Of a DNA stretch of 64,000 nucleotides, positions 1,431 through 18,575 are shown in pieces. The stretch comes from Candidatus Omnitrophota bacterium (GTDB lineage Bacteria; Omnitrophota; Gorgyraeia; JAGLLT01). The DNA is taken from assembly GCA_030632085.1 (NCBI GenBank), contig DAOVJY010000001.1, positions 207,402-271,401 of the forward strand, written 5' to 3'. The notes under the pieces were generated by a model. It did no database searches and was not told the origin of the DNA. It was given only the letters and a program-made list of their open reading frames with translations. The number at the start of each line of letters is the position of its first letter. Positions within the stretch are counted from its first letter, which is position 1. Position numbers and translations under genes: made by a program.

Positions 1431-4400
1431 TTACCAAACTTTTCTTTTAACCAATAAAAATATAAAACAAATTATGCTAAATACGGCTGAAATCAATAAA
1501 GCAGCCCTAAAGTATGTTTGAGGCTGAAATTTGATATTTATCTTATAAGACCCAACTTTTTCTACATACCAGCCATTTGCAAATGAATTGGCAACAAAAT
1601 GGTTTTTTAACTTCCTGCCTTCAGCATAAGCACTCCACCCTGGATGAAAAGATTCTGAGAATATGAGGAAAAATGGCTTTTGACAGACAATTTCAACATT
1701 ATATTCTGTAGGATTAACGTTGCTAAAGGTAATCTCAGGATTTTGCTCTACTTGTTGATTGAGCCCTTTGCCCTTAATCTCTATTAAATAGTCCTCATCT
1801 TCTATCTGATCAACCGTTAATTCCACAACTCCTTTGGCAGCATTGAGTTGCTTCGAAAAAGACTTTCGTCCATTAAAATTTTGTGTTTCTAATTTTATCT
1901 TTTGTTTGTCTATTATTACATTTATTTCTTTAAAGTCAATAAGATTAGTGCTAATAGGATATAAAGTAATATTATAATGGCCGCCAGGAGGCTTATAAAA
2001 CTCGGTTTGAAAAAATAAATTCCCAATCTCGATATTTTTATTAATCGCAATTGAAACAGATTGTCCATTTCTAATATCAGCAGCTGCTACCTGATAGAAA
2101 GATATAATGTTTTCACTAGGATGCAATTTTATCTTTTTTAATAGGATGTCGCTAACTTGTTCTTGTTCTAAGTTATGCATTGAAGCGAGGTTATCATTAA
2201 CATATACATATAAAACCCTCTTTCTACCAAAAGCATAGGCCTGTAAAAATAGATTCGTTTCTGAAGAAGCATTATCAGAATTTTTGATAACAATATGCCT
2301 TGCCAAATTATGCTGAAGCAATTTCCAACCAGGCTTAGCAGCTATTGTTTTCTCTTGGAGATAATAACCAGCTTCGAAAGTATACTCTAAACTATTATTA
2401 CTGCTTCCCCCGGATGCTTCAGACATTTTTCCAGGCGCAGCTATCTTTGCATCTAATTTTCTAGTATCTGCAAGAGCATACCAGTCACAATTATCATAAT
2501 CAGCTGTCTCTTGCCCATCACATGCAGCTTGATAACCATCAGAAGAATAGAAAGTCACTAAGCTGCCAATCATATTCTCATGTGAAATCTTATCGTAAAA
2601 ATCCAAATCTTGATTGTTCTCAGAAAATATTAAAACCTGATTATCAATAATATCAGTATCACTTATAGGAACCAGAGCATGAAACCCGCCTCTTGTAATG
2701 GCAGCTTTATTTCTAGTGTATATATGTTTAAATAAAGGCTTGATACGGTAAAAATCCCACATCCCGAAACTTCTTTCAAAATTGATGTTGTTTTGACATT
2801 GCAGGGCTTCTTTGATAAATTGAGGATCATCTCCCAGAAAAAAAGCCGGGCCTTTGTAAAAATCATTTCTAACATCATTTTCCTGTAAGATATAACCAAT
2901 ATTAAATAAATTAAAAAGTTTGTAAACATTGGGTGTCGCTCTATCATATATACTCAACTTGATAATATCGCACATTGGCCGCGACATATTTACAGCACCC
3001 TGGGACATAAGAATATATTCCGGATCATAGGAAAAAACAACCGGCCTGTTAATAAAATTATTTATTATGGAGCCGTATCCATTATATCCCCAGGAAGATA
3101 TCCACGGACTATCTCCGGGCATATTATAAACCCTATAATAATCACTTTGGTTATTAAGCCAATCAGCTGATTCATAAACATACTCAGGTATTTTTATATG
3201 ATGAGGCGGTAAAAACGTTCTATCGCTTTTTTCATGGTACATCTTTCCTGAAAAAACCGGATAAGCATAAATAATATTTAAAAAGACTATAAGAAAAACT
3301 GCTAAATAGGCCAGCCAACTGCCCTTTCCTTTAAATTTATTGAGTAAATACGTGAATATACTCATTGAGGCCAAACCTATAAGAAAAGAAAAACTTATGC
3401 AAATTATAATTCCAAATTTAAAATAAGGGCTTCTGATAATCCACAACAAAGGAACATGTTTAACCACCCATAGATATGTAAGAGAAAATGGAAAATGCGT
3501 TCCCATGCTTAGTACAACACCAGTAATTGCAAGAAGCGAAAATAATAATCTATTTTTATTTTTCGAAAAAAACATTGCAAATAAAACCATAAGCGGCGCA
3601 AACCAGCTGAGAACAATCAACAAAATATTAGTTTGAAAAAGCTTGGAATAAGCCTGATAGGGATCGACACAACCATCATACCAGGTCCAATCCCCTTGCA
3701 GGCGGATCACATTAACAAAGCTTGTATGTAAAGAAAGATTTTTGAGCCAAAGAAAAGCTTCAGCTTTTTTTAAGACAAAAAAACCGCTATCTGCTGAACG
3801 CATTAAAGAAATAGCCTCCGGTAAAAGCCAGTATAAATTTATCACTAGAGCTGCTATCAGAAACGAAACAAAAAACAGCAGAGTTCTTTTAAGCTTTTTA
3901 AAATCCTTTAGATACAACTGCTTTATCAAAAAAAATACAAAACAAAATGCTATGGGCGAGATTACGGCTATCATTTCAGAAGGATTGTTGCCGGCGGCTC
4001 CAATAGATAAACATAACAAGGAAAGTAAACCGATATTTTTAAAGGTATACTTATCTTTTCTGATGGATACTATAATTACAGCTAGGATAAAAGGCAAAAT
4101 CGCATAACCGCTTATAAGCGGAGACTTGAAGGCTTGCCAAATAGTAGTCTGCCATAAGTTGTAGAGATAAAAAGATGCTGCACAAAAAGCAGCTATATGG
4201 CTATATTTCGTTCTTATGAGCTTATTGACGAGATAATACATTGCTATGCCCGAAAGCATAAACCAGAATATGAAACTAATTTTTTCTGTAGTAATAATAT
4301 CCAAACCATATTTTTGCAATAAGGCAGGTAATGCCTGAAATATAATGAGACAGGTATCTAGAATTCTTTCTGCACCTGCTCCCAGTTGCTCATTCCAGAC

Positions 4401-4550
4401 ATAAAATAGCTGAGACCATTTTTCATAGCTATAAGGCAAGCGCATATCATTTGAGATAATGAGCATACCTTTTTTAAACCACAAAAGAGGCGTCAGTCCT
4501 AATATTAATGTAAGGATAAAAAATAAAATATTTTCTTTTTTGGATTTCAT
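1431..4550 (-). CDS. Large polytopic membrane protein, putative GT-C glycosyltransferase (AftD/DUF3367-like), 1039 aa
   Basis: About 12 hydrophobic helices in the N-terminal roughly 450 aa. The first loop (LLWFKKG...SNDMRLPYSYEKWSQLFYVWNEQLGAG) resembles the AftD-family first-loop Asp motif. A large soluble C-terminal domain ends in an ANGW motif and a C-terminal transmembrane anchor. It is a paralog of the ORF at 15063..18575. Confidence 0.5.
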   Translation of the reverse strand: MKSKKENILFFILTLILGLTPLLWFKKGMLIISNDMRLPYSYEKWSQLFYVWNEQLGAGAERILDTCLIIFQALPALLQKYGLDIITTEKISFIFWFMLSGIAMYYLVNKLIRTKYSHIAAFCAASFYLYNLWQTTIWQAFKSPLISGYAILPFILAVIIVSIRKDKYTFKNIGLLSLLCLSIGAAGNNPSEMIAVISPIAFCFVFFLIKQLYLKDFKKLKRTLLFFVSFLIAALVINLYWLLPEAISLMRSADSGFFVLKKAEAFLWLKNLSLHTSFVNVIRLQGDWTWYDGCVDPYQAYSKLFQTNILLIVLSWFAPLMVLFAMFFSKNKNRLLFSLLAITGVVLSMGTHFPFSLTYLWVVKHVPLLWIIRSPYFKFGIIICISFSFLIGLASMSIFTYLLNKFKGKGSWLAYLAVFLIVFLNIIYAYPVFSGKMYHEKSDRTFLPPHHIKIPEYVYESADWLNNQSDYYRVYNMPGDSPWISSWGYNGYGSIINNFINRPVVFSYDPEYILMSQGAVNMSRPMCDIIKLSIYDRATPNVYKLFNLFNIGYILQENDVRNDFYKGPAFFLGDDPQFIKEALQCQNNINFERSFGMWDFYRIKPLFKHIYTRNKAAITRGGFHALVPISDTDIIDNQVLIFSENNQDLDFYDKISHENMIGSLVTFYSSDGYQAACDGQETADYDNCDWYALADTRKLDAKIAAPGKMSEASGGSSNNSLEYTFEAGYYLQEKTIAAKPGWKLLQHNLARHIVIKNSDNASSETNLFLQAYAFGRKRVLYVYVNDNLASMHNLEQEQVSDILLKKIKLHPSENIISFYQVAAADIRNGQSVSIAINKNIEIGNLFFQTEFYKPPGGHYNITLYPISTNLIDFKEINVIIDKQKIKLETQNFNGRKSFSKQLNAAKGVVELTVDQIEDEDYLIEIKGKGLNQQVEQNPEITFSNVNPTEYNVEIVCQKPFFLIFSESFHPGWSAYAEGRKLKNHFVANSFANGWYVEKVGSYKINIKFQPQTYFRAALLISAVFSIICFIFLLVKRKVW

Positions 4551-4593: not shown

Positions 4594-5337
4594 TTAAGAA
4601 CCTTTTGAGGCTTCAATCCAAAGCGATCCCGCAATATTATTAATAATAGGAATCTGTTCGCAAAATTCGCCAACTTTTTTTACAAAATTAATAAGTTTAG
4701 CCGGTGTCGCCGGATGTAAAAAATCAAAATTCTTGACACAAATATTCTGCCAACCATTATCTTTAAGAAAATTATTTAATTGTGATTTCGAAAAAGCTGT
4801 TTCAGTGGGTGTTTGATGCCGCTGTCTGATAAAAGCAATATTTCTTTCTAAAAAAATCTGCGGATTAAGCATATTAGGCTCAAAAAATAGAATTCTACCA
4901 TTTTTAGTTAATACTCTTTTAATCTCACTTAAAGCCGCATTCAAATCAACGTGATGTAAAATGCCATCCCCAACAACAGCTTCAAAACTCTCATTTTTAA
5001 AAGGTAGATGAGTAAGGTCAGCACATAAATAAGTAGCAGTAACATTTTGTTTTTTGGCAATTTCAATTAAATCAGAGGTAAGGTCTATACCTGTGACTTT
5101 TAGATAATCCTTAACTGAAGAAGTTAATTCCCCCGCTCCACAACCCACCTCCAAGAGATTCTTTTTTACATTAGCTCTTTTTAAAAAATCTTTTAAGATG
5201 CTTTGCTTTCTTCTTAAGCGCCGCTTACCGGCTTTTGTGCTTTGGCCCCACCAAGAATGGCCATAGGCTTCCGCCTTAGTGCGGAAGTGTTCAGACTCAG
5301 TGGATTTATTTTGTACTATTTTATTTTCTTTTGTCAT
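4594..5337 (-). CDS. Class I SAM-dependent methyltransferase
   Basis: Motif LLEVGCGAGELTS (G-x-G-x-G). No clear Shine-Dalgarno sequence. Confidence 0.7.
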   Translation of the reverse strand: MTKENKIVQNKSTESEHFRTKAEAYGHSWWGQSTKAGKRRLRRKQSILKDFLKRANVKKNLLEVGCGAGELTSSVKDYLKVTGIDLTSDLIEIAKKQNVTATYLCADLTHLPFKNESFEAVVGDGILHHVDLNAALSEIKRVLTKNGRILFFEPNMLNPQIFLERNIAFIRQRHQTPTETAFSKSQLNNFLKDNGWQNICVKNFDFLHPATPAKLINFVKKVGEFCEQIPIINNIAGSLWIEASKGS

Positions 5338-5372
5338 TTTTTATTTTTTGATTAATATGTACTATTCTTAAA

Positions 5373-5969: not shown

Positions 5970-6010
5970 AATTTTCTTTTCTGAAGTATTAACAAGTTAC
6001 AATAATGATA

Positions 6011-7897
6011 TCAGGCATACTTTTGATGCCATAATTGAAAAATTAAAAGAGTCCAGATTAGTTTTCGGTTATCTTTTTTCATACAAAAGTGTTCGTCTAA
6101 TATTCTTTTCACGTATTGATCATTAAAAATACCACCTCTTTTTATCTTTGAGATATCAAGGATATCTGTAATAAATGGACGCAATTCCCCATTAATCCAT
6201 TTGCCCACTGGAATACCGAAACCTTTTTTGGGTCTGTTAATAATTTCTTTCGGTAATCTTTTGTGGGCCGCTTTTTTCAAAATATATTTCGTTTTAAATT
6301 TTCTGAGCTTTAACGATGGTTCTAATCTAGAGACAAATTCCACAAATTCCTTATCTAGAAATGGCGACCTCACCTCCAGGGAATTAGCCATGCTTGCTCT
6401 ATCAACTTTAACCAATACGTCATCCTGAAGATAAAGTTTCGCATCCAGATACAAAAGCTTTTCTAATGAATCTTTTGAATTACATTTGTCCAGATGCTGT
6501 CTAATATCTTCAAATTCATCCATATTACTTAGATTTTCTCTAAAATCATCCGTAAAAAGACATTTTTTTTCTTCCGGAGAAAAAGATCCCATCCACCTGT
6601 AGTGTCTTTCCTCGGGGGAAGTTCCTAACCCAGAAACAAATTTTTTTGCTTTAAAATCAAAACTGAAATTACTAAGTGAAACCGGTAATTTGTTAACTAT
6701 TTTTTTAAACTGCGAGATAACCGACGCAGGTAATAATTTAAAATATTCAGCAGTTTTATGAGCCCCATAAGTAGGATAACCTGCAAAAAGTTCATCGCCA
6801 CCATCACCACTTAAGGCCACTTTAACATGTTTACCTGTAAAAGAAGATAAAAGATAAGTAGGTACAATTGAAGCATCAGCTAATGGTTCATCTAAAATAT
6901 CGCATATTCCGGGAATGATATCTAAAAGTTGCTTGCTGCTAAGGTGTTCTTCGAAATAATCAACGCCTAAATATTTTGCCACTTTTTTAGCATATTTACT
7001 CTCATCAAATGACTTATCATCAAAGGCTATATTAAAAGCTTTGACGCTCGCTGATGACAATTCAGACATAAGGCTAATGATGTAAGACGAATCTAGGCCA
7101 CCGCTTAAAAAAGCACCTAAACTTACATCGCTTATAAGTCTCTTTTTTACTGATTTTTTAAGTAAATTATCAAGTTCTGCTGCTGCTTCGTCTTCATTGT
7201 ACAGCTTAAAATCAGTTCTTGAAGAATATCTTATATCCCAATAAGGTTCATTTATAATTTTATCTTTAGTGATTACTAATTTATGTCCCGGCCGAACTTT
7301 TTTTATTTTTGAAAAAATTGTTGCTGGTGCCGGTACAAATTCATAAGTAAAGTATTTACTGACCGCATTGTAATCTAGCGCTTTACTAACCTTGGGGTGC
7401 TGCAGCATTGACTTTATTTCTGAAGAAAAAACAACTCCATTGTCTACAAATGAATAGTGCAACGGCTTTTGTCCCATATTATCTCGGGCTAATATTAATT
7501 TTTTTTCTCTTTCATCCCATAGAGCAATCGCAAACATGCCATCTAATTTCTTTATAAAATCTTCTCCATGTTCTTCGTAAAGATGAACAATGACCTCGGC
7601 ATCTGACTTTGTATAGAAATTGTGGGATTTATTCTGAAGGATTTGCTTTAATTCTTGATAGTTGTATATTTCGCCATTACAGACAGCCCAGATACTCTTA
7701 TCTTCACTGTGCATTGGCTGATTACCGGTTGTTAAATCTATAATACTTAAACGCCTGAAGCCCATGCCGGCAATTTTAGTTAAGTAATATCCCTCATCAT
7801 CCGGCCCACGATGAATCTGGGCCTGATTCATTTTTTTTAACGCCTTTACGTCAACGGGCGTTGCATTAAAATTAACAATACCACATATTCCACACAT
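6011..7897 (-). CDS. asnB: Asparagine synthetase (glutamine-hydrolysing)-like amidotransferase. In a glycan cluster it is probably a WbpS-like sugar uronamide-forming enzyme.
   Basis: N-terminal MCGICGI provides the Cys2 Ntn nucleophile. The PP-loop SGGLDSS is present. Its start lies 2 nt after the upstream gene's stop, which suggests translational coupling. Confidence 0.85.
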   Translation of the reverse strand: MCGICGIVNFNATPVDVKALKKMNQAQIHRGPDDEGYYLTKIAGMGFRRLSIIDLTTGNQPMHSEDKSIWAVCNGEIYNYQELKQILQNKSHNFYTKSDAEVIVHLYEEHGEDFIKKLDGMFAIALWDEREKKLILARDNMGQKPLHYSFVDNGVVFSSEIKSMLQHPKVSKALDYNAVSKYFTYEFVPAPATIFSKIKKVRPGHKLVITKDKIINEPYWDIRYSSRTDFKLYNEDEAAAELDNLLKKSVKKRLISDVSLGAFLSGGLDSSYIISLMSELSSASVKAFNIAFDDKSFDESKYAKKVAKYLGVDYFEEHLSSKQLLDIIPGICDILDEPLADASIVPTYLLSSFTGKHVKVALSGDGGDELFAGYPTYGAHKTAEYFKLLPASVISQFKKIVNKLPVSLSNFSFDFKAKKFVSGLGTSPEERHYRWMGSFSPEEKKCLFTDDFRENLSNMDEFEDIRQHLDKCNSKDSLEKLLYLDAKLYLQDDVLVKVDRASMANSLEVRSPFLDKEFVEFVSRLEPSLKLRKFKTKYILKKAAHKRLPKEIINRPKKGFGIPVGKWINGELRPFITDILDISKIKRGGIFNDQYVKRILDEHFCMKKDNRKLIWTLLIFQLWHQKYA

Positions 7898-7899: not shown

Positions 7900-8853
7900 T
7901 TAATCAATATTAAGTTTAGTTAAAATAACGTAAGGAGCTTTATCTTGAGATTCATGGTAGGTTCTGATGGAAATTTCACTTAAAAGGCCCATAAGAATAA
8001 ACTGAACTCCGGTTATTATACAAATGGTCATAATGAATATCATGGGACTTACCCAAGCGCCATGTAATAACAGCGCGCGAATAAGTACAAAAACACTTAC
8101 CAAAAAACCAATAAGAAACAGGAAAATTCCAATAAAACCAAAAACATATATGGGTTTTGTGGCATATCTGATAAGAAAATTAGCGGTGATTAAATCTAAA
8201 ATTACTTTAAAGGTTCTGCTTAATCCGTATTTAGTTTGCCCATGAATTCTAGGAGAATGCTCAACTTCTACCTCTGCCATTTTGGCACCCATCCAAGCAG
8301 CATACACGGCTAAAAGCCTATGCATCTCTCCGTAAAGCTTTAAGTCTGATAAAACTTCTTTGCGGTATGCCTTTAGGGTGCAACCTAAATCGTGTATGGG
8401 AATGTTGGCAAGTTTGGATATAATTTTATTTGCTATTAAGGAAGGTAAACGTTTGGTAATAAAGGGGTCCCGCCTATTTTTTCTCCAGCCACTAACAACA
8501 TCATAACCTTCATTAATTTTTTTTATTAATTTAGGAATATCATTAGGGCTATTCTGTAAGTCAGCATCCATGGTGATGATGATATCTCCCTTAGCACAAT
8601 CAACTCCGGCAGCAATAGCAATAGTTTGACCGCAATTTCTCCTTAAATTTATCCCTTTCATATTTTTATCTTTTTTTGCCACCTCGCTAATAACATTCCA
8701 GCTTTTATCAACTGAACCATCATTGACAAAAATAACCTCATATTCCATTTTGAGGCTCGGCAATATTCCCGCTAATTTATCATAAAGAATTTTTAAATCT
8801 TCTTCTTCATTATATACAGGAATAACTACTGACAAATCAAGCTTATTGCTCAT
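7900..8853 (-). CDS. GT2 polyprenyl-phosphate glycosyltransferase of the ArnC/GtrB/DPM1-like family, with C-terminal transmembrane helices
   Basis: [14 protein letters not shown] and [35 protein letters not shown] align closely with E. coli ArnC ([49 protein letters not shown]). There are two C-terminal transmembrane helices. An AAGGAG Shine-Dalgarno sequence lies 5 nt upstream. Confidence 0.8.
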   Translation of the reverse strand: [317 protein letters not shown]

Positions 8854-8906: not shown

Positions 8907-10025
8907 CTAATCTAAAGGTTCACAATCAGTAATTCTTACATTGCATACTTTGCCTAAATATTTACGGTATACACATTGAGTTTCAGAAGATACATCATTC
9001 TGCTTCATCCATACTTTCTGAACACCAACTGTGCCGCTTTGAGTAAGAATGTGAACTAAATCTACGTCTTTTTTCTTATAGCAGTTGAGAATTCCTTGCA
9101 CTAATAACGAATAAATTCCACGTCTCCTATATGCTTCATCGACGGCGTTCAACGTTATGTAGACTATATTCTTTGAAAATGACTTGGTAGCTTCTATATC
9201 TGCTTCCCCGCTTAAGTACCCAACCACTTTATTTTCATGAGTTGCAATAATAATTTTATTATTTGCGTTTTGCAAGGAGCTTTTATAACAACTATTTATC
9301 CATTTTTTGTAAAGAAGATCAGCTTTATCATTAGAAAGCATGGGGTCATTGTGAAATCTATCGAACCAACCGCTTTGAGGCCTAAATGACTTTTCTGTAA
9401 TTTTGCGTAAGTCTTTTAAATCGGATGGTTTGGAGAATCTCAATTTTATATTTGAATCGTAAGCTTCCGGTGTATAATTTGTTAAATTCTTAATATAAGC
9501 GCTTGTTTGAGCCATTAACAAGTATTGGTTTTCTTCAGCCGAGTGTATTAATGATATCTGATTTAAGGGCAGGCGAATGGTTATATGTTTTATTTGCTGA
9601 TGGATACAATAACTCTCTATTTCATTTAATAGAATAGACGAGTATTTCTTGTCATCTGAATAACCCGACTGGCTAACAATACCAATCTTGGCCATCTTGA
9701 ACCCAAAATGCCTGGTATCCCAATCGGAAAGCTCTACCCATCCAAATGCTTTAATTTTCCCATTGATATCTAAGGCTATAATTCTGCCGTTATTCTTTAT
9801 TTTAGAAAGTTTACTAAGAAAATATTTTACCTTCTTTTTGTTCGTTATCTCTTTACAGCTGTAAAAATTTTTGTATTTATACTCATCCAGCAGCAAAGAG
9901 AGTTTTTTTAAGGTTGAGTTATTTATTTCGATAATCTTCATACAAGCTAAATAATCTTTTTCTTGTAGTATTCGATTGTCTTTTTTAAGCCATCTTCCAA
10001 AGAAGTTGATGGCTCCCAATTGCAA
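8907..10025 (-). CDS. GNAT-family N-acetyltransferase (two-domain, WecD-like), probably a sugar N-acetyltransferase
   Basis: The C-terminal half carries the GNAT acetyl-CoA motif VDEAYRRRGIYSLLV. The annotated start overlaps the upstream gene by 79 nt. An alternative start at Met29 (complement 9939..9941) removes the overlap. Neither start has a convincing Shine-Dalgarno sequence. Confidence 0.5.
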   Translation of the reverse strand: MQLGAINFFGRWLKKDNRILQEKDYLACMKIIEINNSTLKKLSLLLDEYKYKNFYSCKEITNKKKVKYFLSKLSKIKNNGRIIALDINGKIKAFGWVELSDWDTRHFGFKMAKIGIVSQSGYSDDKKYSSILLNEIESYCIHQQIKHITIRLPLNQISLIHSAEENQYLLMAQTSAYIKNLTNYTPEAYDSNIKLRFSKPSDLKDLRKITEKSFRPQSGWFDRFHNDPMLSNDKADLLYKKWINSCYKSSLQNANNKIIIATHENKVVGYLSGEADIEATKSFSKNIVYITLNAVDEAYRRRGIYSLLVQGILNCYKKKDVDLVHILTQSGTVGVQKVWMKQNDVSSETQCVYRKYLGKVCNVRITDCEPLD

Positions 10026-10912
10026 TAACTCTTAATTCTATCTATTTTTGGCACTCTTCTAGGTATATCTTCATATTTATCGCCAAACACTTCTTTATGG
10101 GAAATAAATTTAAACTCTGATTTAAAATTACCAACTTTTTTCAGCGCCTTAGCAAGCTCCAAAACTGAAACTTCTTCTGTGCGCCCTATATTGAAAACAT
10201 TCTGTTCCGCTTTTTTACAAAAGGCAACTTTTAATACTGCATCTACGGCATCGTCAACATATACATACGTTCTAGTTTGTGAGCCATCTCCATGAATTGT
10301 GACAGGTTCATTCATCAAAAACTGTTTTAAAAATATAGGAATAACTCTCCCTGAGCCTAAATCATCCAGCTTTGGGCCGTAGACATTAAAAAAACGAACC
10401 ATAGCGAAAGGCAGGCCTTCGTGCTGATGATAGGCATAAAGATAATGTTCTGCTGTCGCCTTTGCAGATGAATAACACCACCTATTTATAGCAGTTGAAC
10501 CCAAAACCCTATCATCATCTTCCGCCCAAGGAGTTTTTGGATTCCTGCCATAAATTTCTGAAGTTGAGGCAAAAATAACTTTTGTTTTATCTTGAGCAGC
10601 CAACTTTAAAATATTGAGCGTTGCCTGTAAATCAATCTCAAGCACAGTTAGGGGCTCTTGCACATATCTTTTCGGATCGGCGATAGCCGCAAAATGAAAA
10701 ACCATATCAGCCTTTTTGACTTCTCTCTGCATTAGGTCTCTATCTAAAACAGAACCCTGAATAAACTGAAAATCTTTATTATCCATAAGATATTCTACTT
10801 TTGAACCATCTGACATATCAAGAGCAATGACATTATGCCCCTTTTTTAAGAGTTTTTCACATAAATATGAACCTAAAAAACCAGCTCCACCTGTAATTAA
10901 TATTCTTTCCAT
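9947..10912 (-). CDS. SDR-family UDP-glucuronate decarboxylase resembling the ArnA C-terminal domain
   Basis: Rossmann motif ITGGAGFLGSYL. ADMVFHFAAIADPKRYVQEPLTVLEIDLQATLNILKLAAQDKTKVIFASTSEIYG aligns with the ArnA decarboxylase segment [55 protein letters not shown]. The catalytic YSSAK motif is present. A GGAGGA Shine-Dalgarno sequence is present. Confidence 0.7.
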   Translation of the reverse strand: MERILITGGAGFLGSYLCEKLLKKGHNVIALDMSDGSKVEYLMDNKDFQFIQGSVLDRDLMQREVKKADMVFHFAAIADPKRYVQEPLTVLEIDLQATLNILKLAAQDKTKVIFASTSEIYGRNPKTPWAEDDDRVLGSTAINRWCYSSAKATAEHYLYAYHQHEGLPFAMVRFFNVYGPKLDDLGSGRVIPIFLKQFLMNEPVTIHGDGSQTRTYVYVDDAVDAVLKVAFCKKAEQNVFNIGRTEEVSVLELAKALKKVGNFKSEFKFISHKEVFGDKYEDIPRRVPKIDRIKSYCNWEPSTSLEDGLKKTIEYYKKKII

Positions 10913-10946: not shown

Positions 10947-12473
10947 TTATATCAAATCCACCTTAATTAAGCAATAAAAACCACTTTCTTTAACAATCTG
11001 ATTGTTGGGCAAGTTTAATTCAGAAATTTGGACGTATTGTGTGTTGATCAAGAGATAATTTATGTCATATCTTTTAAAAATGACGGTCAAGGGCACCTTC
11101 AAGACAGGCCAAAAATCACTGTAATCCACAACATGGGCTATAGAGTTGTCTGTGGTTAACAACCTGGCAGAAGTAAAATATGTAGCAGCATCAGCTAAAT
11201 ACAGGGGCATGGTCATTATATTTACTTTGCCTTCAAGAATATCAATATATTTAAATATTTCTTTTATTTCTTTATTAACCGAGCGTTTAGAATCTTTTAC
11301 TATAACTTGCTGCTGTATGAATAATGTGGGCAGCAACGCTCCGAAAATAGCGATGATTAAATAGAACACTAAAAATACATTATGCTGTCCCGATATTAAG
11401 CCATTTGTAAGAAATACTGCTACAATTATAGCTACAGGGAAAGCTGAGTATTCCAGATACCTTTCGCCCTCTCCAATACAGCCAAGTTTCTTCACCTGTC
11501 TGACAATGACTCCAATCACAAACAACAAGATACTCCAAACAACAAACTTTGAGAACATAGCCTCTGGGATACCCATTGTATTTATATTATATGATTTGAA
11601 TAAATCTAAATAAACATAAGCAAAAACAAAAACCATAAAAGGATTAGCGGCGCATACAGCTATAAAAGGTATATTTTGAACAAGTTGATATATCCTAAAA
11701 ACAGCATCCGGATTTTTCTCTTTTTTTGAAACTCCTCTTATCTGGTGAGCATATCTATTATCAATATGAATAAACCAGAACCTTATCATGGCCAGGTGTC
11801 CCTTGAGAACTTTAAGATAGAACCCTTTTGAAAAAAGTATTGCTAAGATAACAGAACCTAACAACACAGCAATATATGTAAAATCAAGTTCAATTATTGA
11901 GAAAAACACCAAGGTAAACACAATTGCCTGAATAGACATTCGGTGCGATAAAAGTAATATAGTTAAGAAAATAATAGAAGCTATCAAACAAAAGATATTG
12001 CCAAACACACTATAACAAATAAGGGAAAAGAAACAACCGCTAAATAGTAATGAAGCAAAAGAGCGAGTTGTCAAATTAGAATTTTCCATAATAACTATAG
12101 GGCTGAGCATATAAGTTACTTGAGCGAGTATCGAAATAAAGAAGTTATTTGTAAAATAATAAACTACGCTAAAAATAAATAAGTTGTGAATGAAATCAAA
12201 AATTGGTGAAGCAATCCACTGGTATTTTTCAAGTAATTTTTTTGGAAATAGGGCTAGTAAAAAACGAAAAAGCGGCGGATAATCAGAAGGCTTATCTATA
12301 AGATAGTGTTCAGGCATAAGCTTTGGATATTTCTTATTCTGCCTTATATAGTCGGCTACTGTCAGATGCCTCCATGTATCAATCCCAAAATAGCGATTAC
12401 TAAGCCGAGGCCTAACCTGGATAAACAACCCAACCAAAGCAACAACTACTCCAAATATATACCCAATTAACAT
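10947..12473 (-). CDS. Polytopic membrane protein, putative GT-C glycosyltransferase (ArnT/PMT-like), 508 aa
   Basis: About 12-13 hydrophobic helices. The first loop motif FGIDTWRHLTVADYIRQNKKYP resembles the ArnT DE-motif region (PDETRYAEISREM). It is a paralog of 21575..23104 and of the remnant at 12651..12878. An AAGGAT Shine-Dalgarno sequence is present. Confidence 0.5.
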   Translation of the reverse strand: MLIGYIFGVVVALVGLFIQVRPRLSNRYFGIDTWRHLTVADYIRQNKKYPKLMPEHYLIDKPSDYPPLFRFLLALFPKKLLEKYQWIASPIFDFIHNLFIFSVVYYFTNNFFISILAQVTYMLSPIVIMENSNLTTRSFASLLFSGCFFSLICYSVFGNIFCLIASIIFLTILLLSHRMSIQAIVFTLVFFSIIELDFTYIAVLLGSVILAILFSKGFYLKVLKGHLAMIRFWFIHIDNRYAHQIRGVSKKEKNPDAVFRIYQLVQNIPFIAVCAANPFMVFVFAYVYLDLFKSYNINTMGIPEAMFSKFVVWSILLFVIGVIVRQVKKLGCIGEGERYLEYSAFPVAIIVAVFLTNGLISGQHNVFLVFYLIIAIFGALLPTLFIQQQVIVKDSKRSVNKEIKEIFKYIDILEGKVNIMTMPLYLADAATYFTSARLLTTDNSIAHVVDYSDFWPVLKVPLTVIFKRYDINYLLINTQYVQISELNLPNNQIVKESGFYCLIKVDLI

Positions 12474-12483: not shown

Positions 12484-12639
12484 TTACTTTTTCTTTGCGA
12501 TTAAGAAAATATCTCTAAATCCTTCTTTTTTGAATTTATGAGTTATAAGCCTCTTCACAGACTTAAAATCTCTATAGATAATCTTTTTAAGAAAATATTT
12601 AAAAAAATAAAAAAAGTTGGAGAAACTAACCACTCGCAT
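12484..12639 (-). pseudogene. Remnant of the 3' end of a methyltransferase paralog, 51 codons
   Basis: The minus-strand translation ...SFSNFFYFFKYFLKKIIYRDFKSVKRLITHKFKKEGFRDIFLIAKKK* aligns with the C-terminus of the methyltransferase at 12881..13606 (...NLSIPFFYLSKYLFKINLYKKPFIEKIITREYEKDGFRDIFLVCKKIKGNEE*). The upstream frame is closed by a stop codon. Confidence 0.5.
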
Positions 12640-12650: not shown

Positions 12651-12878
12651 TTATTTATGGAAAGCTGCCAGTAGAAATCTTAGGCCCGGCTGATAATCAG
12701 AGAGAGATTCGATTAAGAATTTATCCATCCATTTGGGATAGTGTTTGTTTTCTCTGATATAATCTGCTACCATCAGATGTCTCCAACTATCTACTCCGAA
12801 ATGCCTGATGCTGAAGCGGGGCCTAACTTGAATAATAAAACTAAGTGCTGTAATAAAAATACCAACAAGCAAAAACAA
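12651..12878 (-). pseudogene. Truncated N-terminal remnant (75 aa) of an ArnT-like GT-C membrane protein paralog
   Basis: MFLLVGIFITALSFIIQVRPRFSIRHFGVDSWRHLMVADYIRENKHYPKWMD...RFLLAAFHK* is about 55% identical to the first 78 aa of 10947..12473. It stops where the full-length proteins continue for a further 430 aa. Confidence 0.6.
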
Positions 12879-12880
12879 TG

Positions 12881-13606
12881 TTATTCCTCATTACCTTTAA
12901 TTTTCTTACAAACTAAAAATATATCTCTAAAACCATCTTTTTCATATTCACGGGTAATAATTTTTTCTATAAAAGGCTTCTTATACAAATTAATTTTAAA
13001 CAAGTATTTAGAAAGATAAAAGAAAGGGATGGAAAGATTTGTTAATACTCCTCCTTTTAACATGAGTTTTTCAAATTCAAAACCTTTATCAGCTAACATC
13101 TGTCTTAAATTTTCTACGTTGTAATGCCGATGGCCCACTAACCAGTGCGCTACATCAAAGATATTACCCATCAACTCACTACGAGGAGTCGTTATTATGA
13201 ATGAGCCCCCTATTTTTAGCACTCTATTTACTTCTTTAAAAAGCTGCGGCTCGGTATTTTTAGGAATATGCTCTAAAACCATAAACAGACTCACCACATC
13301 AAAGGAATTATCCTCAAAGGGCAGGCAAAATGCATCAGCTGCCCCAAAAGTACAATGGGGATTCGCTTCCTTGGCTATTTTTAAAGCTGCCAGGGATATA
13401 TCTACGCCAGTAATCTGACAATCGTCATCTTTAAACTGGGTTTCAAAACTAGCTGTCCAACAGCCGATATTCAAAACCTTTTTACCTTCAAAATATGGTT
13501 TAATTAATTTGTAAATAATCTTATGAAAAACGTCCGGAGTCGGTTCATCAAAACTCTTTAGAAAATTCAACTCATGAATTATGCGCTTCTTATTATCTTT
13601 TGGCAT
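12881..13606 (-). CDS. Class I SAM-dependent methyltransferase
   Basis: Motif VLNIGCWTASF, a motif II Asp and a VLEHI motif. Its start lies 2 nt after the upstream stop. Confidence 0.7.
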   Translation of the reverse strand: MPKDNKKRIIHELNFLKSFDEPTPDVFHKIIYKLIKPYFEGKKVLNIGCWTASFETQFKDDDCQITGVDISLAALKIAKEANPHCTFGAADAFCLPFEDNSFDVVSLFMVLEHIPKNTEPQLFKEVNRVLKIGGSFIITTPRSELMGNIFDVAHWLVGHRHYNVENLRQMLADKGFEFEKLMLKGGVLTNLSIPFFYLSKYLFKINLYKKPFIEKIITREYEKDGFRDIFLVCKKIKGNEE

Positions 13607-13608
13607 TT

Positions 13609-15066
13609 TTATCTTCTGACCTTTACAAAATCTCTGATATGCCCTATGACCGGTTTTATACCTCTGCCTAAATATCTAATATATTCTAAATCTCTAATTT
13701 TTAAGATATGGCGCAATATAAATCTAGGATGCAGAAATATTTTATATATATCATGACAAATCTTCATTATTTCTTCTTCAGTTGCATCAGGTGTTTTTAA
13801 TATCGGATGGCACATATCGAATTGCTCATAATCATCTTTATCAATCTTAAGCCAGTTGTTTTCCACAGCCTCCTCATAAAGAGGTGTCCCGGGATAACTC
13901 ATAATCACAGTTGATTGCAACATATCGGCATAACCGTTAAGCATCAGATATCTGGCTAGTTTAAGGGTATCGAGCATGTCTTGCTTAGTTTCCCAGGGAT
14001 AGCCGACCATCATTGTTAAATGGACTGTCAGTCCGGCCTGCTTAGCTATTTTGCTACCCTCTATTATCTGGGCAACGGTTGTACCTTTATCAAGCCGCTT
14101 TAGAGTTTCATCGCTGGCTGATTCCAGACCACATTTCATGAGCCGGAAGCCCGCTTTTTTCATTAACTTGGCTCGTTCAAGAGTTAAATAATCATACCTG
14201 AAATTACAGGATATGTATATCTTCTTATTGTAACCTCTTTCAATCATTCCGTTACAAAATTCTGTTAACCACTTGCCAGAAGGAAAAGTTCCGGTATCAT
14301 CAAATATTTCACCGATATCATATTTTCCAATCAACAATCCAATTTCATTTAGTAAGCTCTCAGGGCTTCTGGTTCTAAACTTGGGAAAAAGTGTGGTCCA
14401 GGAACAAAATTTACATTTGGCCCAAGGACAGTCTCTTCCAACCATAGTATAAGTGAATGGCTCTCTTTTATAAAGCCGTTCACCATATAAACGCCACTTA
14501 GTCAGCTCTCTATCAACTAAAGGCAGAGTATTTAAATCATGATTAAGCTCAAACTTACCGGTACTTTTTATTTGTCCATTATTTCGATACCAGATACCAG
14601 GCTCCAGCGTTTCTTTTTTTTCTAAATATTTAACTATATTTGAGAGAAGAAAATCATAATCCCCTCCGGTAAGACAAAAATCAACTTTTGAATTTTGCAT
14701 ACTTTCATCCGGCTTAGCCGTAATGTGATCTCCCATTAAGACTGTAATGCATTCAGGATTGATGCTTTTAAGTTCATCAACTATTTTCCAGTGCTGCCTA
14801 ACGACCGGGGTTTTTGTCTCCAGGGCAATTAAATCGGGTTTTTCTTTCTTGACAAAATCGATAAATTCCTCATATTGCCATTTTTCAGCAATGCAATCAT
14901 TCCATACAACCTCATGGCCCTCTTCTTTTAAAAGAGTTGCCGCTGAAGCCGGCACCATGGGATATATATAAGATGGATTATGAAAATATTGAAACTGTCT
15001 ATTCTGCCCAAGCATAGGTATTCCTTTAGCATCCGGTATTGGTGGATATGAAATCATTATTTTCAT
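13609..15066 (-). CDS. B12-binding-domain radical SAM protein
   Basis: The N-terminus has a Rossmann-like B12-binding domain. The core carries GRDCPWAKCKFC (a Cys triad with Cx4Cx2C spacing), DDTGTF (glycine-rich SAM motif), CGLESASDETL (GxESxS ribose motif) and TMMVGYPWET (the xVGxPGET motif typical of B12-rSAM and Elp3-like enzymes). Confidence 0.7.
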   Translation of the reverse strand: MKIMISYPPIPDAKGIPMLGQNRQFQYFHNPSYIYPMVPASAATLLKEEGHEVVWNDCIAEKWQYEEFIDFVKKEKPDLIALETKTPVVRQHWKIVDELKSINPECITVLMGDHITAKPDESMQNSKVDFCLTGGDYDFLLSNIVKYLEKKETLEPGIWYRNNGQIKSTGKFELNHDLNTLPLVDRELTKWRLYGERLYKREPFTYTMVGRDCPWAKCKFCSWTTLFPKFRTRSPESLLNEIGLLIGKYDIGEIFDDTGTFPSGKWLTEFCNGMIERGYNKKIYISCNFRYDYLTLERAKLMKKAGFRLMKCGLESASDETLKRLDKGTTVAQIIEGSKIAKQAGLTVHLTMMVGYPWETKQDMLDTLKLARYLMLNGYADMLQSTVIMSYPGTPLYEEAVENNWLKIDKDDYEQFDMCHPILKTPDATEEEIMKICHDIYKIFLHPRFILRHILKIRDLEYIRYLGRGIKPVIGHIRDFVKVRR

Positions 15067-18000
15067 TTTTTATATCTTCCCTTCCTTTGACGATCATAAC
15101 ATAGGTAAGATATTGATATAATAAGAGTAATAAATGAAACACTTAGACCTAAATAAAATAAGTTTTGTACCTTATAGTTAATTACTATTGTTGAACCTTT
15201 TTTATATTCGGACTTATCAATTTTCCATCCATTTGCATAGCCATCTATTATGAAATGTTCATCAAGTTTAGACTTCTTACCTGAATTACGATTAATAATA
15301 TATGCTTCCCATTCTGAGTTATAAGCTTCCCGAAAATATAAAAAAGATACCTTATTGCTATCGCGTAAAACATTATATTTAGTTTGATTAATCTTTTTAT
15401 ATTTGAGAGGATATGAAAATTCTTGAGTATCGTCTTTAGATGATACTTCAAGGCAACATTTACCCATATTTGCCTGAGCAAATCCAACACTATGCAGTCC
15501 CTCAGGAAAAAATATACTTTCATATATATAACAGTTAACACCATCTAAATTCTTTAGTTCAAATGATATTTCCTTTTCATCTAAACAAACCTTTTTATTC
15601 TTTGTTTGAATGTTTTCACTTACTAAACTATCATAAGGGTAAATTCTGATGTTGTAATCACCCGATTTTGGTATATATATATCACTTTTATAATATTCAT
15701 TACCTATAACCACATCTTTAATAGCACAAGTTACACTTCTCCCATATTTATAACTTTCTTTATCGGGCGAATAAAATGAAATATAATTATCACCCGGTTT
15801 TAATTTAATGCCTTTTAAAATTGTTGTTCGAACCATATCTTTTGGTAAAAAACACATTGAAAGATACGTATCGTTTATATAATAATACATATATCTATCC
15901 ATTTCATATGAATATACATCAAATTTGACATTGGTAATAACTTCTTCACTACTCCTATTATCTATGATAATTGTTTTTCCGTTAGCTGATATTAACCAGT
16001 TCCATTTCGCTTCTTCCGGATTTTTTTTAAATTTAAAAACATTAATTAACTTTGGACTGTTATATTCGCTATTCCATTGAGTATCTTCGGATCTGACTTC
16101 TGACTGCATTTTTTCTGATGATAAAAAATATGTTAAACCCTTACCTTTTTCTCTCAAGCATCTCAGCAATAAATTTCGATATAAATCATTATATGTATCA
16201 AAAACAGCTTTGGGTAATATAATTAAATTAATTTCTTTACTTCCAAGTATGCTCTTTTCCTGATTGGTTAATCTTATTTCAATAACACGCTTTCCTTTTT
16301 TTATATAAAAATTTGCAATGTTAATCCATTTCAAAGAAAAATCGTCCTGAATTAGATCCTTTCTAGCTTGCCCAATTTGTCCATCAATTTTTACATTAAG
16401 TTTGCGGCTATATATGTTGTATATATCCTGTTCAATCCATACCTGATACAAATTTTCAATGCTTGCCTCAAAATTAAATATATGTCCGTTATTAGCTTGT
16501 AAATCGTCACTTAATAGAGTAATTTTATGTTCGGGTTCTATAAAATCAAATACAAAATCAGAAAAATTAGCATTGTAAAAGAAAATTTTCTCAATTCCTC
16601 CATTGAGTTCTTCTTTAATGAAAGTATGATTTATTTTTTGACTAGATAAAATAACAGGTAAGTCATTCATAATATTAATATAACTTAAAGGAGAAAAAGC
16701 TGAAACTTTACCGACTAACATAGCTAACTTAGATGTTTCCCCAATATAAACCGGGTCATCCTGATTTTGATATAATTGCCACTTGCCATAAGTGCCTAAA
16801 AGATTAATTTTTCTTTGATAGGATAAAGCGCTCTTTAGAAAATCCGGTGAAAGCTTTGAACCAAAAAAATCATACCAGGCATCATTGTGAACTAAGATAT
16901 ATTTTACGTTTAAGACATTCAGAATATTAGCGGCTAGCGGAGTCGTTCTCTCATAAAGGGCGTTGTAATAAGTATTTTTCAGCTTATCAGTATCGGTTGC
17001 ATTACTGTTTCCATATAGTATAGATTTTAATGAGAGCAATGTAAGTAAATGTGGGGGGCCTACATAACCCCATCTATATCCATTAAGCGGTAATGATGGT
17101 AACGCAATAATACGATAATCATTTTCTTGCTTATCCATAAATTTAACAAAATCAATTATATAATTTGGAACCTTTATACCAACAGAAAATGACGTTCCAG
17201 GTTCTCTTATCCTAATAACTTGTCCGTTTAACATTGGATAGCTGTAGATAAAATTACAACATAAAATTATTATTATAAATACTGTAGGTATCATGCTATT
17301 AAGGTTATACTTTTGGTGCAATATTGTTCTTTTGCAACAATTTTTAATCTTTGTGTACAAATATATCAAAGTAACACTTATTAAATACGAATATGCCAAG
17401 GAAATAATTAACGCGAATTTATAATATGGGCTTCTAAATACCTGAAAAAAAGGCACATTTTCAGTCATCCACAAGTAAAATTTGCCCGTGGGCATATGAG
17501 CACCGCAAGCTAAAACCGTGGCAATTATACTCATTACAACAAAAAAAACTTCGTGAAATTTCTTTTTAATAATAATTGCAGAGTAAGCCAATGCAGGAAT
17601 TAATACACTCCAAATTATCAAAAATGGATTAGTGAAATATGTTTTAGCATAGGGAACATAAGGCACATTAACCCTGGCGTCATAGTACCAATCCCATGCT
17701 CCCTGAAAGCGGGAAACATTTAAAATAGAGGTGTGGGTACTTATTCCCTTAAGCCAGTTAGCCAAATTAAACGCCCCTAAGCCGTAATTCACACTGGCCA
17801 TCAATCTTGCAACAACTTCACGCAAATAAGGTAACCACCAAAAAGCGTTTATACCGATAAAGATAAGGATAATTAAAGCAAAAAAACTTATAACGTTACA
17901 TATATTTTTAAAGGCATCCTTTGAAAATATCCTATTTATAATATAAAAAATTGCGTATGAGACAATCAACAATAGTGGCATAGCAAAAATAGGAGGACTA

Positions 18001-18575
18001 GCTCCCCATTCAGACACTAATAGTGAAAACAGTCCTATGTAAATAGCAGCCTTAAAATAACTTATATCTTTCCTTAGGCCCTTAATCATAAAAGCTAATA
18101 TTATCGGCATACCAACATAAGCTGAAATATTGGCAGCCTTCCCTACTTCCCAAATATTAAAAACCAGTGGATTAAAAGCATAGAAACAGACAGCTATTAA
18201 TCTTTGCAAGCGATTCGGTTTCGCCTGAATGACAGCAACCATGTAATAAATGGCCACTTCTATCATTAAAAACCAAAATATAAAAAGAATCTTCTGCGAT
18301 ATAATTGCTGACATACCGAAAAAATTGCAAATGGCTTGAGGTAAATAATAGAATAGACTTGTAGCATAAATAGCAGATGGCATACCGGCGCCAAAACGAG
18401 AATCCCACATAAAAAAACGTGCTGTATAAAACTTAATAGGATTGTACAAAGGATAAACCGCATCTGAACCAGCCACAGCTATTCCGCCTTTGAACCAAAG
18501 CAGGGGCACGAGTCCTAATAAAAAAATTACTAATAAATCCTGTAATAATGCATTTTTACTTTTATTATTATTCAT
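15063..18575 (-). CDS. Large polytopic membrane protein, putative GT-C glycosyltransferase (AftD/DUF3367-like), 1170 aa
   Basis: The N-terminal roughly 480 aa are multi-transmembrane. The first loop GSDAVYPLYNPIKFYTARFFMWDSRFGAG aligns with the AftD N-terminal motif (PDTKLDLTANPLRFLARATNLWNSDLPFGQ). The large soluble C-terminal domain ends ...ANGW... plus a transmembrane anchor. Confidence 0.5.
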   Translation of the reverse strand: MNNNKSKNALLQDLLVIFLLGLVPLLWFKGGIAVAGSDAVYPLYNPIKFYTARFFMWDSRFGAGMPSAIYATSLFYYLPQAICNFFGMSAIISQKILFIFWFLMIEVAIYYMVAVIQAKPNRLQRLIAVCFYAFNPLVFNIWEVGKAANISAYVGMPIILAFMIKGLRKDISYFKAAIYIGLFSLLVSEWGASPPIFAMPLLLIVSYAIFYIINRIFSKDAFKNICNVISFFALIILIFIGINAFWWLPYLREVVARLMASVNYGLGAFNLANWLKGISTHTSILNVSRFQGAWDWYYDARVNVPYVPYAKTYFTNPFLIIWSVLIPALAYSAIIIKKKFHEVFFVVMSIIATVLACGAHMPTGKFYLWMTENVPFFQVFRSPYYKFALIISLAYSYLISVTLIYLYTKIKNCCKRTILHQKYNLNSMIPTVFIIIILCCNFIYSYPMLNGQVIRIREPGTSFSVGIKVPNYIIDFVKFMDKQENDYRIIALPSLPLNGYRWGYVGPPHLLTLLSLKSILYGNSNATDTDKLKNTYYNALYERTTPLAANILNVLNVKYILVHNDAWYDFFGSKLSPDFLKSALSYQRKINLLGTYGKWQLYQNQDDPVYIGETSKLAMLVGKVSAFSPLSYINIMNDLPVILSSQKINHTFIKEELNGGIEKIFFYNANFSDFVFDFIEPEHKITLLSDDLQANNGHIFNFEASIENLYQVWIEQDIYNIYSRKLNVKIDGQIGQARKDLIQDDFSLKWINIANFYIKKGKRVIEIRLTNQEKSILGSKEINLIILPKAVFDTYNDLYRNLLLRCLREKGKGLTYFLSSEKMQSEVRSEDTQWNSEYNSPKLINVFKFKKNPEEAKWNWLISANGKTIIIDNRSSEEVITNVKFDVYSYEMDRYMYYYINDTYLSMCFLPKDMVRTTILKGIKLKPGDNYISFYSPDKESYKYGRSVTCAIKDVVIGNEYYKSDIYIPKSGDYNIRIYPYDSLVSENIQTKNKKVCLDEKEISFELKNLDGVNCYIYESIFFPEGLHSVGFAQANMGKCCLEVSSKDDTQEFSYPLKYKKINQTKYNVLRDSNKVSFLYFREAYNSEWEAYIINRNSGKKSKLDEHFIIDGYANGWKIDKSEYKKGSTIVINYKVQNLFYLGLSVSFITLIISISYLCYDRQRKGRYKK

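Follow-up and report, generated by a model that had tools for sequence, protein, structure and literature searches.

Two large AftD-like GT-C membrane proteins, a second GT-C family and their tailoring genes in a glycan locus of an Omnitrophota bacterium

Two giant membrane proteins and their relationship to AftD

We analyzed a stretch of 64,000 nucleotides from a Candidatus Omnitrophota bacterium (contig DAOVJY010000001.1, positions 207,402 to 271,401), hereafter called the window. Its first 40 kb are occupied by a single string of 32 co-directional genes on the minus strand, which are separated by gaps of 53 bp or less, with the exception of one gap of 407 bp. Within this string lie two sets of genes, each with one very large membrane protein of the glycosyltransferase C (GT-C) type (giants A and B) and one smaller membrane protein of 508 or 509 residues (TM508 and TM509; TM, transmembrane). 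The order in set B is TM509, SDR298 (SDR, short-chain dehydrogenase/reductase), a DegT aminotransferase, the methyltransferase MT327, giant B, a B12-radical-SAM enzyme (SAM, S-adenosylmethionine) and the methyltransferase MT241. In set A it is TM508, SDR321, a GNAT acyltransferase, the glycosyltransferase GT2_317, AsnB, the methyltransferases MT198 and MT247, giant A, the methyltransferase MT286 and, at the edge of the window, a putative carbamoyltransferase. An earlier note on this DNA had singled out the giants as two open reading frames (ORFs) of 1039 and 1170 residues, and both are present among the four membrane protein genes:

15063..18575, minus strand: giant B, 1170 residues, predicted AftD-superfamily GT-C glycosyltransferase (BLASTP, Pfam, profile, AlphaFold2/Foldseek, alignment)
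1431..4550, minus strand: giant A, 1039 residues, architecture shared with its paralog giant B (30% identity; BLASTP, Pfam, alignment, motifs)
21575..23104, minus strand: TM509, 509 residues, membrane protein with a predicted GT-C fold (BLASTP, Pfam, NCBIfam, alignment, AlphaFold2/Foldseek)
10947..12473, minus strand: TM508, 508 residues, paralog of TM509 (40% identity; BLASTP, Pfam, NCBIfam)

The two giants are significantly similar to each other along most of their lengths (BLASTP, 30% identity over 670 residues in the N-terminal part, E = 7e−82, and 31% over 311 residues in the C-terminal part, E = 1e−35). The similarity extends to the soluble domain, as the earlier note had supposed: when only the soluble regions (residues 440-1012 of giant A and 450-1135 of giant B) were compared, two alignments were obtained (E = 8.6e−34, 268 residues, 123 bits; E = 1.4e−15, 192 residues, 66 bits), while none of 100 shuffles scored above 23.5 bits. 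A stretch in the middle of the soluble region (about residues 652-741 in giant A and 653-857 in giant B) is unalignable and is about 115 residues longer in giant B. Hydropathy and the secondary structure predicted by AlphaFold2 (AF2) place a multi-helix membrane domain at the N terminus, ending at about residue 435-445, and a single helix at the C terminus (residues 1016-1034 in giant A and 1139-1157 in giant B, where the AF2 span is 1135-1169). The motifs LLWFK (from residue 22 in giant A and 25 in giant B) and ANGW (from residues 991 and 1114) are present in both proteins, as are QGxWxWY and RSPYxKF. The common architecture that the earlier note described is therefore borne out, including the multi-TM GT-C-like N-terminal domain and the single C-terminal anchor; its estimate of 550 to 650 residues for the soluble domain is right for giant A (about 580) and slightly too low for giant B (about 695).

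Both termini of both giants are rich in Lys and Arg, which fits a periplasmic location of the soluble domain. We infer that the giants reside in the inner membrane of a diderm host with both termini in the cytoplasm. In the AF2 model of giant B (predicted local distance difference test score, pLDDT, 87.3; predicted TM-score, pTM, 0.85), about 11 N-terminal TM helices are followed by a small periplasmic alpha/beta domain, a region rich in beta-sandwiches and one C-terminal TM helix. To evaluate conservation, we used an alignment of 33 of 39 giant relatives retrieved by a word-indexed database search, with identities down to 21%. Twelve positions of giant B are invariant in this alignment (D38, W57, G64, R381, F387, Y444, P447, W502, D565, W1089, N1115, and Q1137), and W1117 is invariant or nearly so. 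The invariant Asp of the first periplasmic loop is D38 in giant B and D35 in giant A, and the RSPYxKF motif forms a conserved loop between TM9 and TM10. On the evidence of these alignments, the giants are true paralogs and new, divergent members of a superfamily that is already labelled in databases.

That superfamily is the one of AftD, an arabinofuranosyltransferase of Mycobacterium and Corynebacterium that uses decaprenyl-phospho-arabinose as donor to add arabinofuranose to cell-wall arabinan. The only Pfam match for either giant, a weak one, is to GT-C_AftD (PF11847, formerly DUF3367), and 18 of the 33 relatives match the same family at E ≤ 0.01 (best E = 2.2e−10). Searches of the PDB with the single giant sequences returned matches at chance level (E = 0.7 to 0.9). 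A profile built from the alignment of the 33 relatives matched the solved Mycobacterium abscessus AftD (6W98/6WBX) with E = 1.7e−15 in three colinear stretches, which comprise the first loop to TM7 and external loop 4 (EL4), the membrane-proximal periplasmic domain, and the last beta-sandwich with the following TM helix (TM12). In a Foldseek search with the giant B model, AftD was also the best PDB match (6W98, E = 2.9e−24, TMq 0.48), followed by STT3 (E = 1.4e−8). The description of the giants as AftD-like GT-C proteins in the earlier note is thus supported by a weak family match, a strong profile match and the predicted fold. The note had further suggested a comparison with YfhO; neither the giants (E ≤ 1) nor any of the 33 relatives (E ≤ 0.01) matched that family (PF09586), and membership in it was rejected.

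Several features of the giant B model agree with the published 11-helix GT-C super-domain of AftD: TM3 is broken by a Pro, TM7 is prolonged into the periplasm, and a short juxtamembrane (JM) helix precedes TM8. The giants further share with AftD an Asp in the first periplasmic loop, a conserved Trp in the QGxW motif that aligns with W272 of AftD, a large periplasmic region rich in beta-sandwiches, and a homologous C-terminal beta-sandwich that is followed by a TM helix, which is TM12 in AftD. In giant B the model is rich in beta-strands from about residue 690 to 1134, and the model gave weak Foldseek matches to glycoside hydrolases that bear carbohydrate-binding modules (CBMs).

The differences are also substantial. 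The giants have about 1040 to 1170 residues, whereas AftD has about 1400. The C-terminal membrane domain of AftD consists of TM12 and a TM13-16 bundle that binds an acyl carrier protein (ACP), and its periplasmic part carries three CBMs; the giants have a single C-terminal helix and lack the TM13-16 bundle, and therefore have no ACP-binding site. Genes of the giants stand in tandem arrays of paralogs, and their host is a diderm, Omnitrophota-like bacterium, whereas AftD comes from actinobacteria. The active-site residues that are essential in AftD are K39, D41, E251, K361, and D474 (Tan et al., bioRxiv 10.1101/2019.12.22.885152). The K39 column holds Arg in giant A and Val in giant B; alignments of the AftD loops, at 11% identity, are unreliable, and the K361 region lies outside the alignment. 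At the level of superfamily and predicted fold, the giants are AftD-like, and they are not AftD orthologs.

One giant relative is named "alpha-(1->3)-arabinofuranosyltransferase family protein" by NCBI. This name probably over-specifies the function, because the genes nearby suggest that polyprenyl phosphate carries amino, N-acyl, and methylated sugars. No family of the decaprenylphosphoryl-arabinose (DPA) pathway was found by Pfam among the window ORFs scanned (roughly 1-55.5 kb).

The clade of the giants is large. An exhaustive profile search returned 15,549 representatives at E ≤ 1e−3 and 5,403 at E ≤ 1e−30, and the best 150 matches have about 700 to 1900 residues, mostly 950 to 1250. A scan of species-representative genomes, which used a narrower alignment and is biased to relatives with the QGAWDWY and VFRSPYYK motifs, revealed giants at 33 loci, which are spread over Omnitrophota, Planctomycetia, many Patescibacteria, metagenome-assembled genomes (MAGs) labelled as Gammaproteobacteria, and one Woesearchaeota MAG.

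The 508/509-residue GT-C family

TM508 and TM509 are 40% identical to each other (E = 1e−136) and have 32 relatives in the database, none of which (0/32) carries a Pfam domain. Neither protein matches any Pfam family at E ≤ 1, PMT and PMT_2 included, save for one match at chance level, and neither has a match in NCBIfam. A profile of the family also retrieved nothing from the PDB at E ≤ 10. The predicted structure is more informative: the AF2 model of TM509 is of high confidence (pLDDT 89.6, pTM 0.90), and all of its significant Foldseek matches in the PDB are GT-C enzymes (E = 4e−8 to 1e−3). Among these, the oligosaccharyltransferases STT3, AglB, and PglB and the DPY19 protein (E = 4e−8 to 6e−7) rank ahead of ArnT (5F15, E = 4.9e−6, TMq 0.56), and AftA and ALG9 are found as well. 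Asp36 of TM509 is near-invariant and directly follows the first TM helix (residues 2-29), a position that is the usual place of the catalytic acid in GT-C enzymes (PMC11127046). Given the model, the lack of a Pfam or NCBIfam family, and the Arn-like gene context, we regard the 508/509 family as an unclassified GT-C family and a reasonable candidate for a new glycosyltransferase family. An oligosaccharyltransferase reading of the family was rejected, since there is neither a WWDxG motif nor a sequence match.

The earlier note had called these proteins ArnT-like. Their GT-C fold does match that of ArnT (family GT83), and the surrounding genes resemble those of the Arn pathway: behind TM508 come an SDR similar to the C-terminal domain of ArnA, a GNAT, and a GT2 that resembles ArnC, and the genes behind TM509 encode an SDR and a DegT aminotransferase similar to ArnB. 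However, no match to the Pfam family of ArnT (PMT/PMT_2) or to a PDB sequence exists, and oligosaccharyltransferases fit the fold better. The window also differs from the Arn pathway in that a GNAT stands in place of the formyltransferase and that no ArnD or ArnE/F genes occur at the locus. We conclude that "ArnT-like" is a fair functional analogy for TM508 and TM509 and not a family assignment.

An Arn-like set is also found in Patescibacteria of the Blackburnbacteria type (L007-L009, 6909-11506), where a formyltransferase, an SDR, a DegT aminotransferase, and a 509-like protein follow one another, with no giant nearby. To our knowledge, Patescibacteria have neither an outer membrane nor lipid A. 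The absence of lipid A implies that the acceptor of the 509-like protein in those bacteria would differ from lipid A.

A profile-profile comparison aligned the C-terminal soluble domain of TM509 (residues 401-509) weakly with the membrane-proximal periplasmic domain of giant B (residues 467-608; probability 36%, E = 4e−4), and we do not rely on this match. TM509 and its family may represent a reduced relative of the GT-C super-domain seen in AftD-like proteins.

Tailoring genes, related loci and a recombination scar

The remaining genes of the two sets, and those directly upstream of them, are as follows:

23113..28965, minus strand: upstream genes for a two-domain GT2 (575 residues), a GT2 (333 residues), a GT4 (371 residues), a short DPM1-like GT2 (247 residues), and a MOP/Wzx-like flippase (424 residues)
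20670..21566, minus strand: SDR298, predicted SDR-family sugar-nucleotide epimerase/dehydratase (Pfam/NCBIfam; missing from the relative L012)
19579..20673, minus strand: DegT-family sugar aminotransferase, 364 residues, PseC/LegC/ArnB-like
18581..19564, minus strand: MT327, class-I SAM methyltransferase, 327 residues, directly upstream of giant B (68% identity to its L012 ortholog)
13609..15066, minus strand: B12-binding radical-SAM enzyme, 485 residues (4-bp overlap with the end of giant B)
12881..13606, minus strand: MT241, class-I SAM methyltransferase, 241 residues
12651..12878, minus strand: N-terminal remnant of a third 508-like GT-C gene, 75 residues (similarity to TM508)
12484..12639, minus strand: C-terminal remnant of an ancestral methyltransferase (similarity to MT230 of L012)
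9947..10912, minus strand: SDR321, UDP-glucuronate decarboxylase type (UDP-4-keto-pentose/UDP-xylose synthase), like the C-terminal domain of ArnA (E = 4.8e−67 and 1e−56)
8907..9941, minus strand: GNAT acyltransferase (start reassigned from TTG at 10025)
7900..8853, minus strand: GT2_317, ArnC/GtrB-type polyprenyl-phosphate sugar synthase (ArnC, E = 1.6e−64; PgfS, E = 7e−48)
6011..7897, minus strand: AsnB-type glutamine amidotransferase, 628 residues
5373..5969, minus strand: MT198, class-I SAM methyltransferase, 198 residues
4594..5337, minus strand: MT247, class-I SAM methyltransferase, 247 residues, directly upstream of giant A
535..1395, minus strand: MT286, class-I SAM methyltransferase, 286 residues, directly downstream of giant A
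1..519, minus strand: N-terminal part of a putative carbamoyltransferase, edge-cut ORF (position, from synteny with L004, and reading of the translation)

With the listed TTG start (10025), the GNAT gene would run 79 bp into the SDR321 gene; translation probably begins instead with the ATG at position 9941, which gives a product of 344 residues and a gap of 5 bp (the L012 ortholog has 336 residues). The C-terminal region of GT2_317 is hydrophobic and reads as two TM helices from its sequence. Pfam matches of the 424-residue MOP/Wzx-like protein (27691-28965) are weak. Also upstream are genes for three more SDRs, two nucleotide-sugar dehydrogenases, and an LptD_N/LptC-like protein, as well as a separate gene set that we read, from its Pfam families, as a dTDP-rhamnose pathway. 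The LptD_N/LptC-like protein, together with an ABC exporter in the window that is read as MsbA-like, fits a diderm context. Just upstream of the glycan locus and on the same strand, two neighboring genes encode diguanylate cyclases (GGDEF; 41859-44722), one of them with a GAF domain.

According to the earlier note, each giant is the terminal gene of a repeated module in which it follows an ArnT-like gene, an SDR gene, and a methyltransferase gene. This order is correct but abbreviated, as further genes intervene in both sets, and the giants are not terminal: the B12-radical-SAM and MT241 genes follow giant B, and the MT286 and putative carbamoyltransferase genes follow giant A. An all-against-all BLAST comparison showed that only the 508/509 pair and the pair of giants are mutual closest paralogs. 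The closest paralog of SDR321 is SDR310 and that of SDR298 is SDR312, and the methyltransferases are 22 to 31% identical among themselves. A tandem duplication of the whole module was therefore rejected, given that neither the SDRs nor the methyltransferases are reciprocal closest paralogs and that the tailoring genes differ between the sets. The repetition holds for the two pairs of GT-C genes and not for the SDRs and tailoring genes; we do not consider sets A and B to be copies of one module, but ancient paralogs of GT-C type that were retained as a scaffold while the tailoring genes around them were exchanged.

The 407-bp gap (12474-12880) provides a trace of such an exchange, as it holds two gene remnants. 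The first (12651-12878) is 58% identical to residues 8-78 of TM508 (E = 2e−26). The second (12484-12639) is 74% identical to the C terminus of MT230 of locus L012 (E = 3e−16), in comparison to 45% for MT241 of the window, and MT230 occupies the same position in L012 as this remnant does here. Because the remnant is closer to MT230 than to MT241, we conclude that MT241, with a piece of a 508-like gene attached, replaced most of an ancestral methyltransferase gene. By this comparison, the gap is the scar of a recombination event and, along with the points in which L012 differs, it shows that tailoring genes were swapped around the conserved GT-C genes.

Locus L012 comes from another member of the Omnitrophota (about 79% amino-acid identity; its positions 1-23486 correspond to about 535-29900 of the window) and agrees with the window in gene order from Wzx to AsnB. 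The differences are that SDR298 is absent, that another methyltransferase stands before TM508, and that a B12-radical-SAM gene occupies the place of MT198 and MT247. Around the conserved GT-C genes, the tailoring genes turn over quickly. In a more distant Omnitrophota relative (L001), a 509-like gene and, some genes later, a giant (38% identity) are followed by a radical-SAM gene (69%), a 508-like gene (55%, 514 residues), and an SDR gene; in the interval from the 509-like gene to the giant, L001 and the window have different tailoring genes. Elsewhere, giant B has conserved orthologs in genomes at 79% and 38% identity, and the radical-SAM gene is kept after them (69% identity in L001 and 74% in L012).

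Among the 44 records of our locus screen, which include duplicates and three 509-anchored loci, multiple giants per locus and nearby methyltransferases recur. L004 has four giants, L014 and L040 have three each, and several further loci have two. In the giant-anchored loci that we screened, a 509-like gene is paired with a giant in the Omnitrophota relatives alone (L001/L013 and L012), and we rejected this pairing as a general rule. Orthologs of GT2_317 (37 to 44% identity) are located one gene beyond the giant in L002, L010, and L011 and within 10 kb of giants in L012, L016, and L040. Orthologs of SDR321 (63% identity in L002, where it is adjacent to the giant), GNAT, and AsnB are also present in L002 and L010, and an ortholog of MT247 (43%) is present in L002. 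Between the giant and the ArnC-like GT2, three of these loci encode a multi-TM protein of 395 to 517 residues that has no Pfam match (L002, 13426-14667; L010, 13627-14814; L011, 13663-15216); the one of L011 is weakly similar to the membrane domain of the giants, and those of L002 and L010 could be flippases for a lipid-linked donor.

Locus L004 bears on the number of giants. It encodes a giant of 1039 residues that is 81% identical to giant A and is flanked by the same two methyltransferases, with a Carbam_trans gene of 551 residues at the position of the putative carbamoyltransferase of the window. After that gene come three more giants (1031, 1034, and 1041 residues; this part of L004 is at 4886-17158), which makes four giants in 17 kb. 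Since the window ends in an ORF at the carbamoyltransferase position, this synteny suggests that the genome has more than two giants, and by analogy to L004 probably at least five. The two parallel decoration branches that the earlier note deduced are therefore probably an undercount.

Proposed function and rival readings

We propose, with a probability of about 70%, that the giants are polyprenyl-phosphate-sugar-dependent GT-C enzymes of the AftD superfamily, each of which would act on the periplasmic side and attach its own modified sugar to a surface glycan, that the 508/509 proteins act in an ArnT-like manner, and that the tailoring genes around both were exchanged. This proposal builds on the paralogy, the GT-C/AftD homology, the fold, the conserved residues, the gene neighborhood, and its recurrence. 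The type of donor, the acceptor, the periplasmic site of action, and the identity of the sugars are what we infer from them.

The pathway would begin in the cytoplasm, where the ArnA-like decarboxylase, the DegT aminotransferase, GNAT, AsnB, the SAM and B12-radical-SAM methyltransferases, and the putative carbamoyltransferase would produce modified sugar nucleotides. The ArnC/GtrB-type GT2 would then place the sugar on polyprenyl phosphate, a reading of the donor that is supported by the presence of an ArnC-type GT2 in the locus and beside giants elsewhere. The lipid-linked sugar would next be flipped across the membrane, with the Wzx-like protein as the sole candidate flippase, and the giants and the 508/509 enzymes would each transfer their own sugar to the growing surface polysaccharide at the periplasmic side. 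In the giants, the first 445 or so residues are predicted to be the catalytic membrane domain, and the beta-sandwich region is assumed to hold the polymer acceptor, a role that was shown for the CBMs of AftD and of GT136. The 508/509 proteins would be a second, smaller GT-C family that carries out an ArnT-like transfer of an amino sugar.

Three-component periplasmic glycosylation systems whose GT-C enzymes bear CBMs have been described, and in the Citrobacter system of a polyprenyl-phosphoribose synthase, a MATE flippase, and GT136, a MATE-type protein is the flippase (PMC11127046). With this and the other three-component systems (GtrA/GtrB/Gtr* and CsbB/GtcA/YfhO), the window shares a GT2 synthase and a GT-C enzyme with a C-terminal beta-sandwich, CBM-like domain in a surface-glycan locus, and the synthase recurs beside giants in several genomes. 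In contrast to these systems, the locus has no small flippase of the GtrA or SMR type, several GT-C genes seem to share one or two synthases, the giants exceed Gtr*/GT136 enzymes two- to threefold in size, and they have no Pfam match to YfhO.

Several observations weigh against the proposed function. The Pfam scores of giant A (18.4 bits, E = 5.6e−4) and giant B (19.8 bits, E = 2.2e−4) are below the curated threshold of PF11847 (26 bits), and an NCBIfam scan returned no match for either giant. The column of AftD E251 is variable (MAFFT alignment), with Gly in giant B, Lys in giant A, and Glu in close homologs of giant B; AftD D474/E475 align with non-acidic residues in the giants; and the invariant Asp of the giants is aligned to D37 of AftD, which precedes the mutated D41 by four residues. 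No Pfam CBM domain was found in giant A or B, and only 1 of the 33 relatives has a match to CBM_4_9. At the locus (1-22 kb) there is no ORF for a small flippase of the GtrA or ArnE/F type, which leaves the Wzx-like MOP protein, and only one clear ArnC-type synthase is encoded within sets A and B. In the literature searched, we found no paper that links arabinofuranosyltransferases with Omnitrophota or Patescibacteria.

The giants could instead be processive periplasmic polymerases similar to EmbA/B/C and the arabinan-building Aft proteins, which would use polyprenyl-monophosphate sugars to build a whole polymer domain and not decorate a glycan of Leloir enzymes with side branches. Tandem arrays of giants in L004, L014, L040, and other loci would fit such a role, the closest solved relative, AftD, acts in an assembly line of this kind, and no Wzy or priming phosphoglycosyltransferase was detected among the window ORFs scanned with Pfam (about 1-55.5 kb). 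However, four Leloir GT2/GT4 genes and the Wzx-like flippase are present in the same locus, a priming transferase and Wzy are encoded close to the giant of L002, and the two sets together show a single ArnC-type donor synthase. On balance, we consider polymerase activity of the giants unlikely.

The fold matches raise the alternative that the GT-C enzymes, and TM508 and TM509 especially, transfer sugars to proteins (for example S-layer proteins, pilins, or lipoproteins), as oligosaccharyltransferases or PMT/DPY19 enzymes do, and not to polysaccharide or lipid acceptors. Indeed, STT3, AglB, PglB, and DPY19 surpass ArnT as matches of the TM509 model, and STT3 is the second-best match of the giant B model. 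However, a regular-expression search of TM508, TM509, and giants A and B for a WWDxG-type motif returned none, no sequence match to the STT3 or PMT families was obtained, AftD, as the closest relative of the giants, acts on a glycan, and the context is a polysaccharide locus with Arn-like genes. Protein glycosylation is therefore quite improbable in our judgment. It is even harder to believe that one or both giants are inactive paralogs that serve the smaller GT-C enzymes as glycan-binding scaffolds or regulators: the missing equivalents of AftD E251 (Gly in giant B despite Glu in its close homologs) and D474/E475 and the lack of the regulatory ACP-binding bundle would agree with this, but the invariance of the first-loop Asp and a dozen other positions among the 33 relatives argues for a conserved active site, the clade-wide variability of the E251 column means that it is not a clade-wide catalytic residue, and the orthologs of giant B are conserved at the identities given above.

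Under the proposed decoration of a surface glycan by lipid-linked sugars, the periplasmic addition of sugars is conventional biology, and no general principle is changed. What is extended is the range of an architecture: AftD-type GT-C proteins, which have so far been studied only in Actinobacteria, reach into diderm Omnitrophota and Patescibacteria, in a clade of over 5,400 representatives (50% identity, E ≤ 1e−30). A bolder and, at present, doubtful extension is that the giant arrays and the 508/509 family form a largely periplasmic GT-C assembly line, common to ultra-small Omnitrophota and Patescibacteria, in which polyprenyl-monophosphate sugars would be built into a heteropolysaccharide with heavy methylation, amidation, and carbamoylation. 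If such an assembly line were to exist, the synthesis of envelope polymers in the style of arabinan would take place outside Actinobacteria, and the exchange of cassettes around conserved GT-C scaffolds would generate surface diversity.

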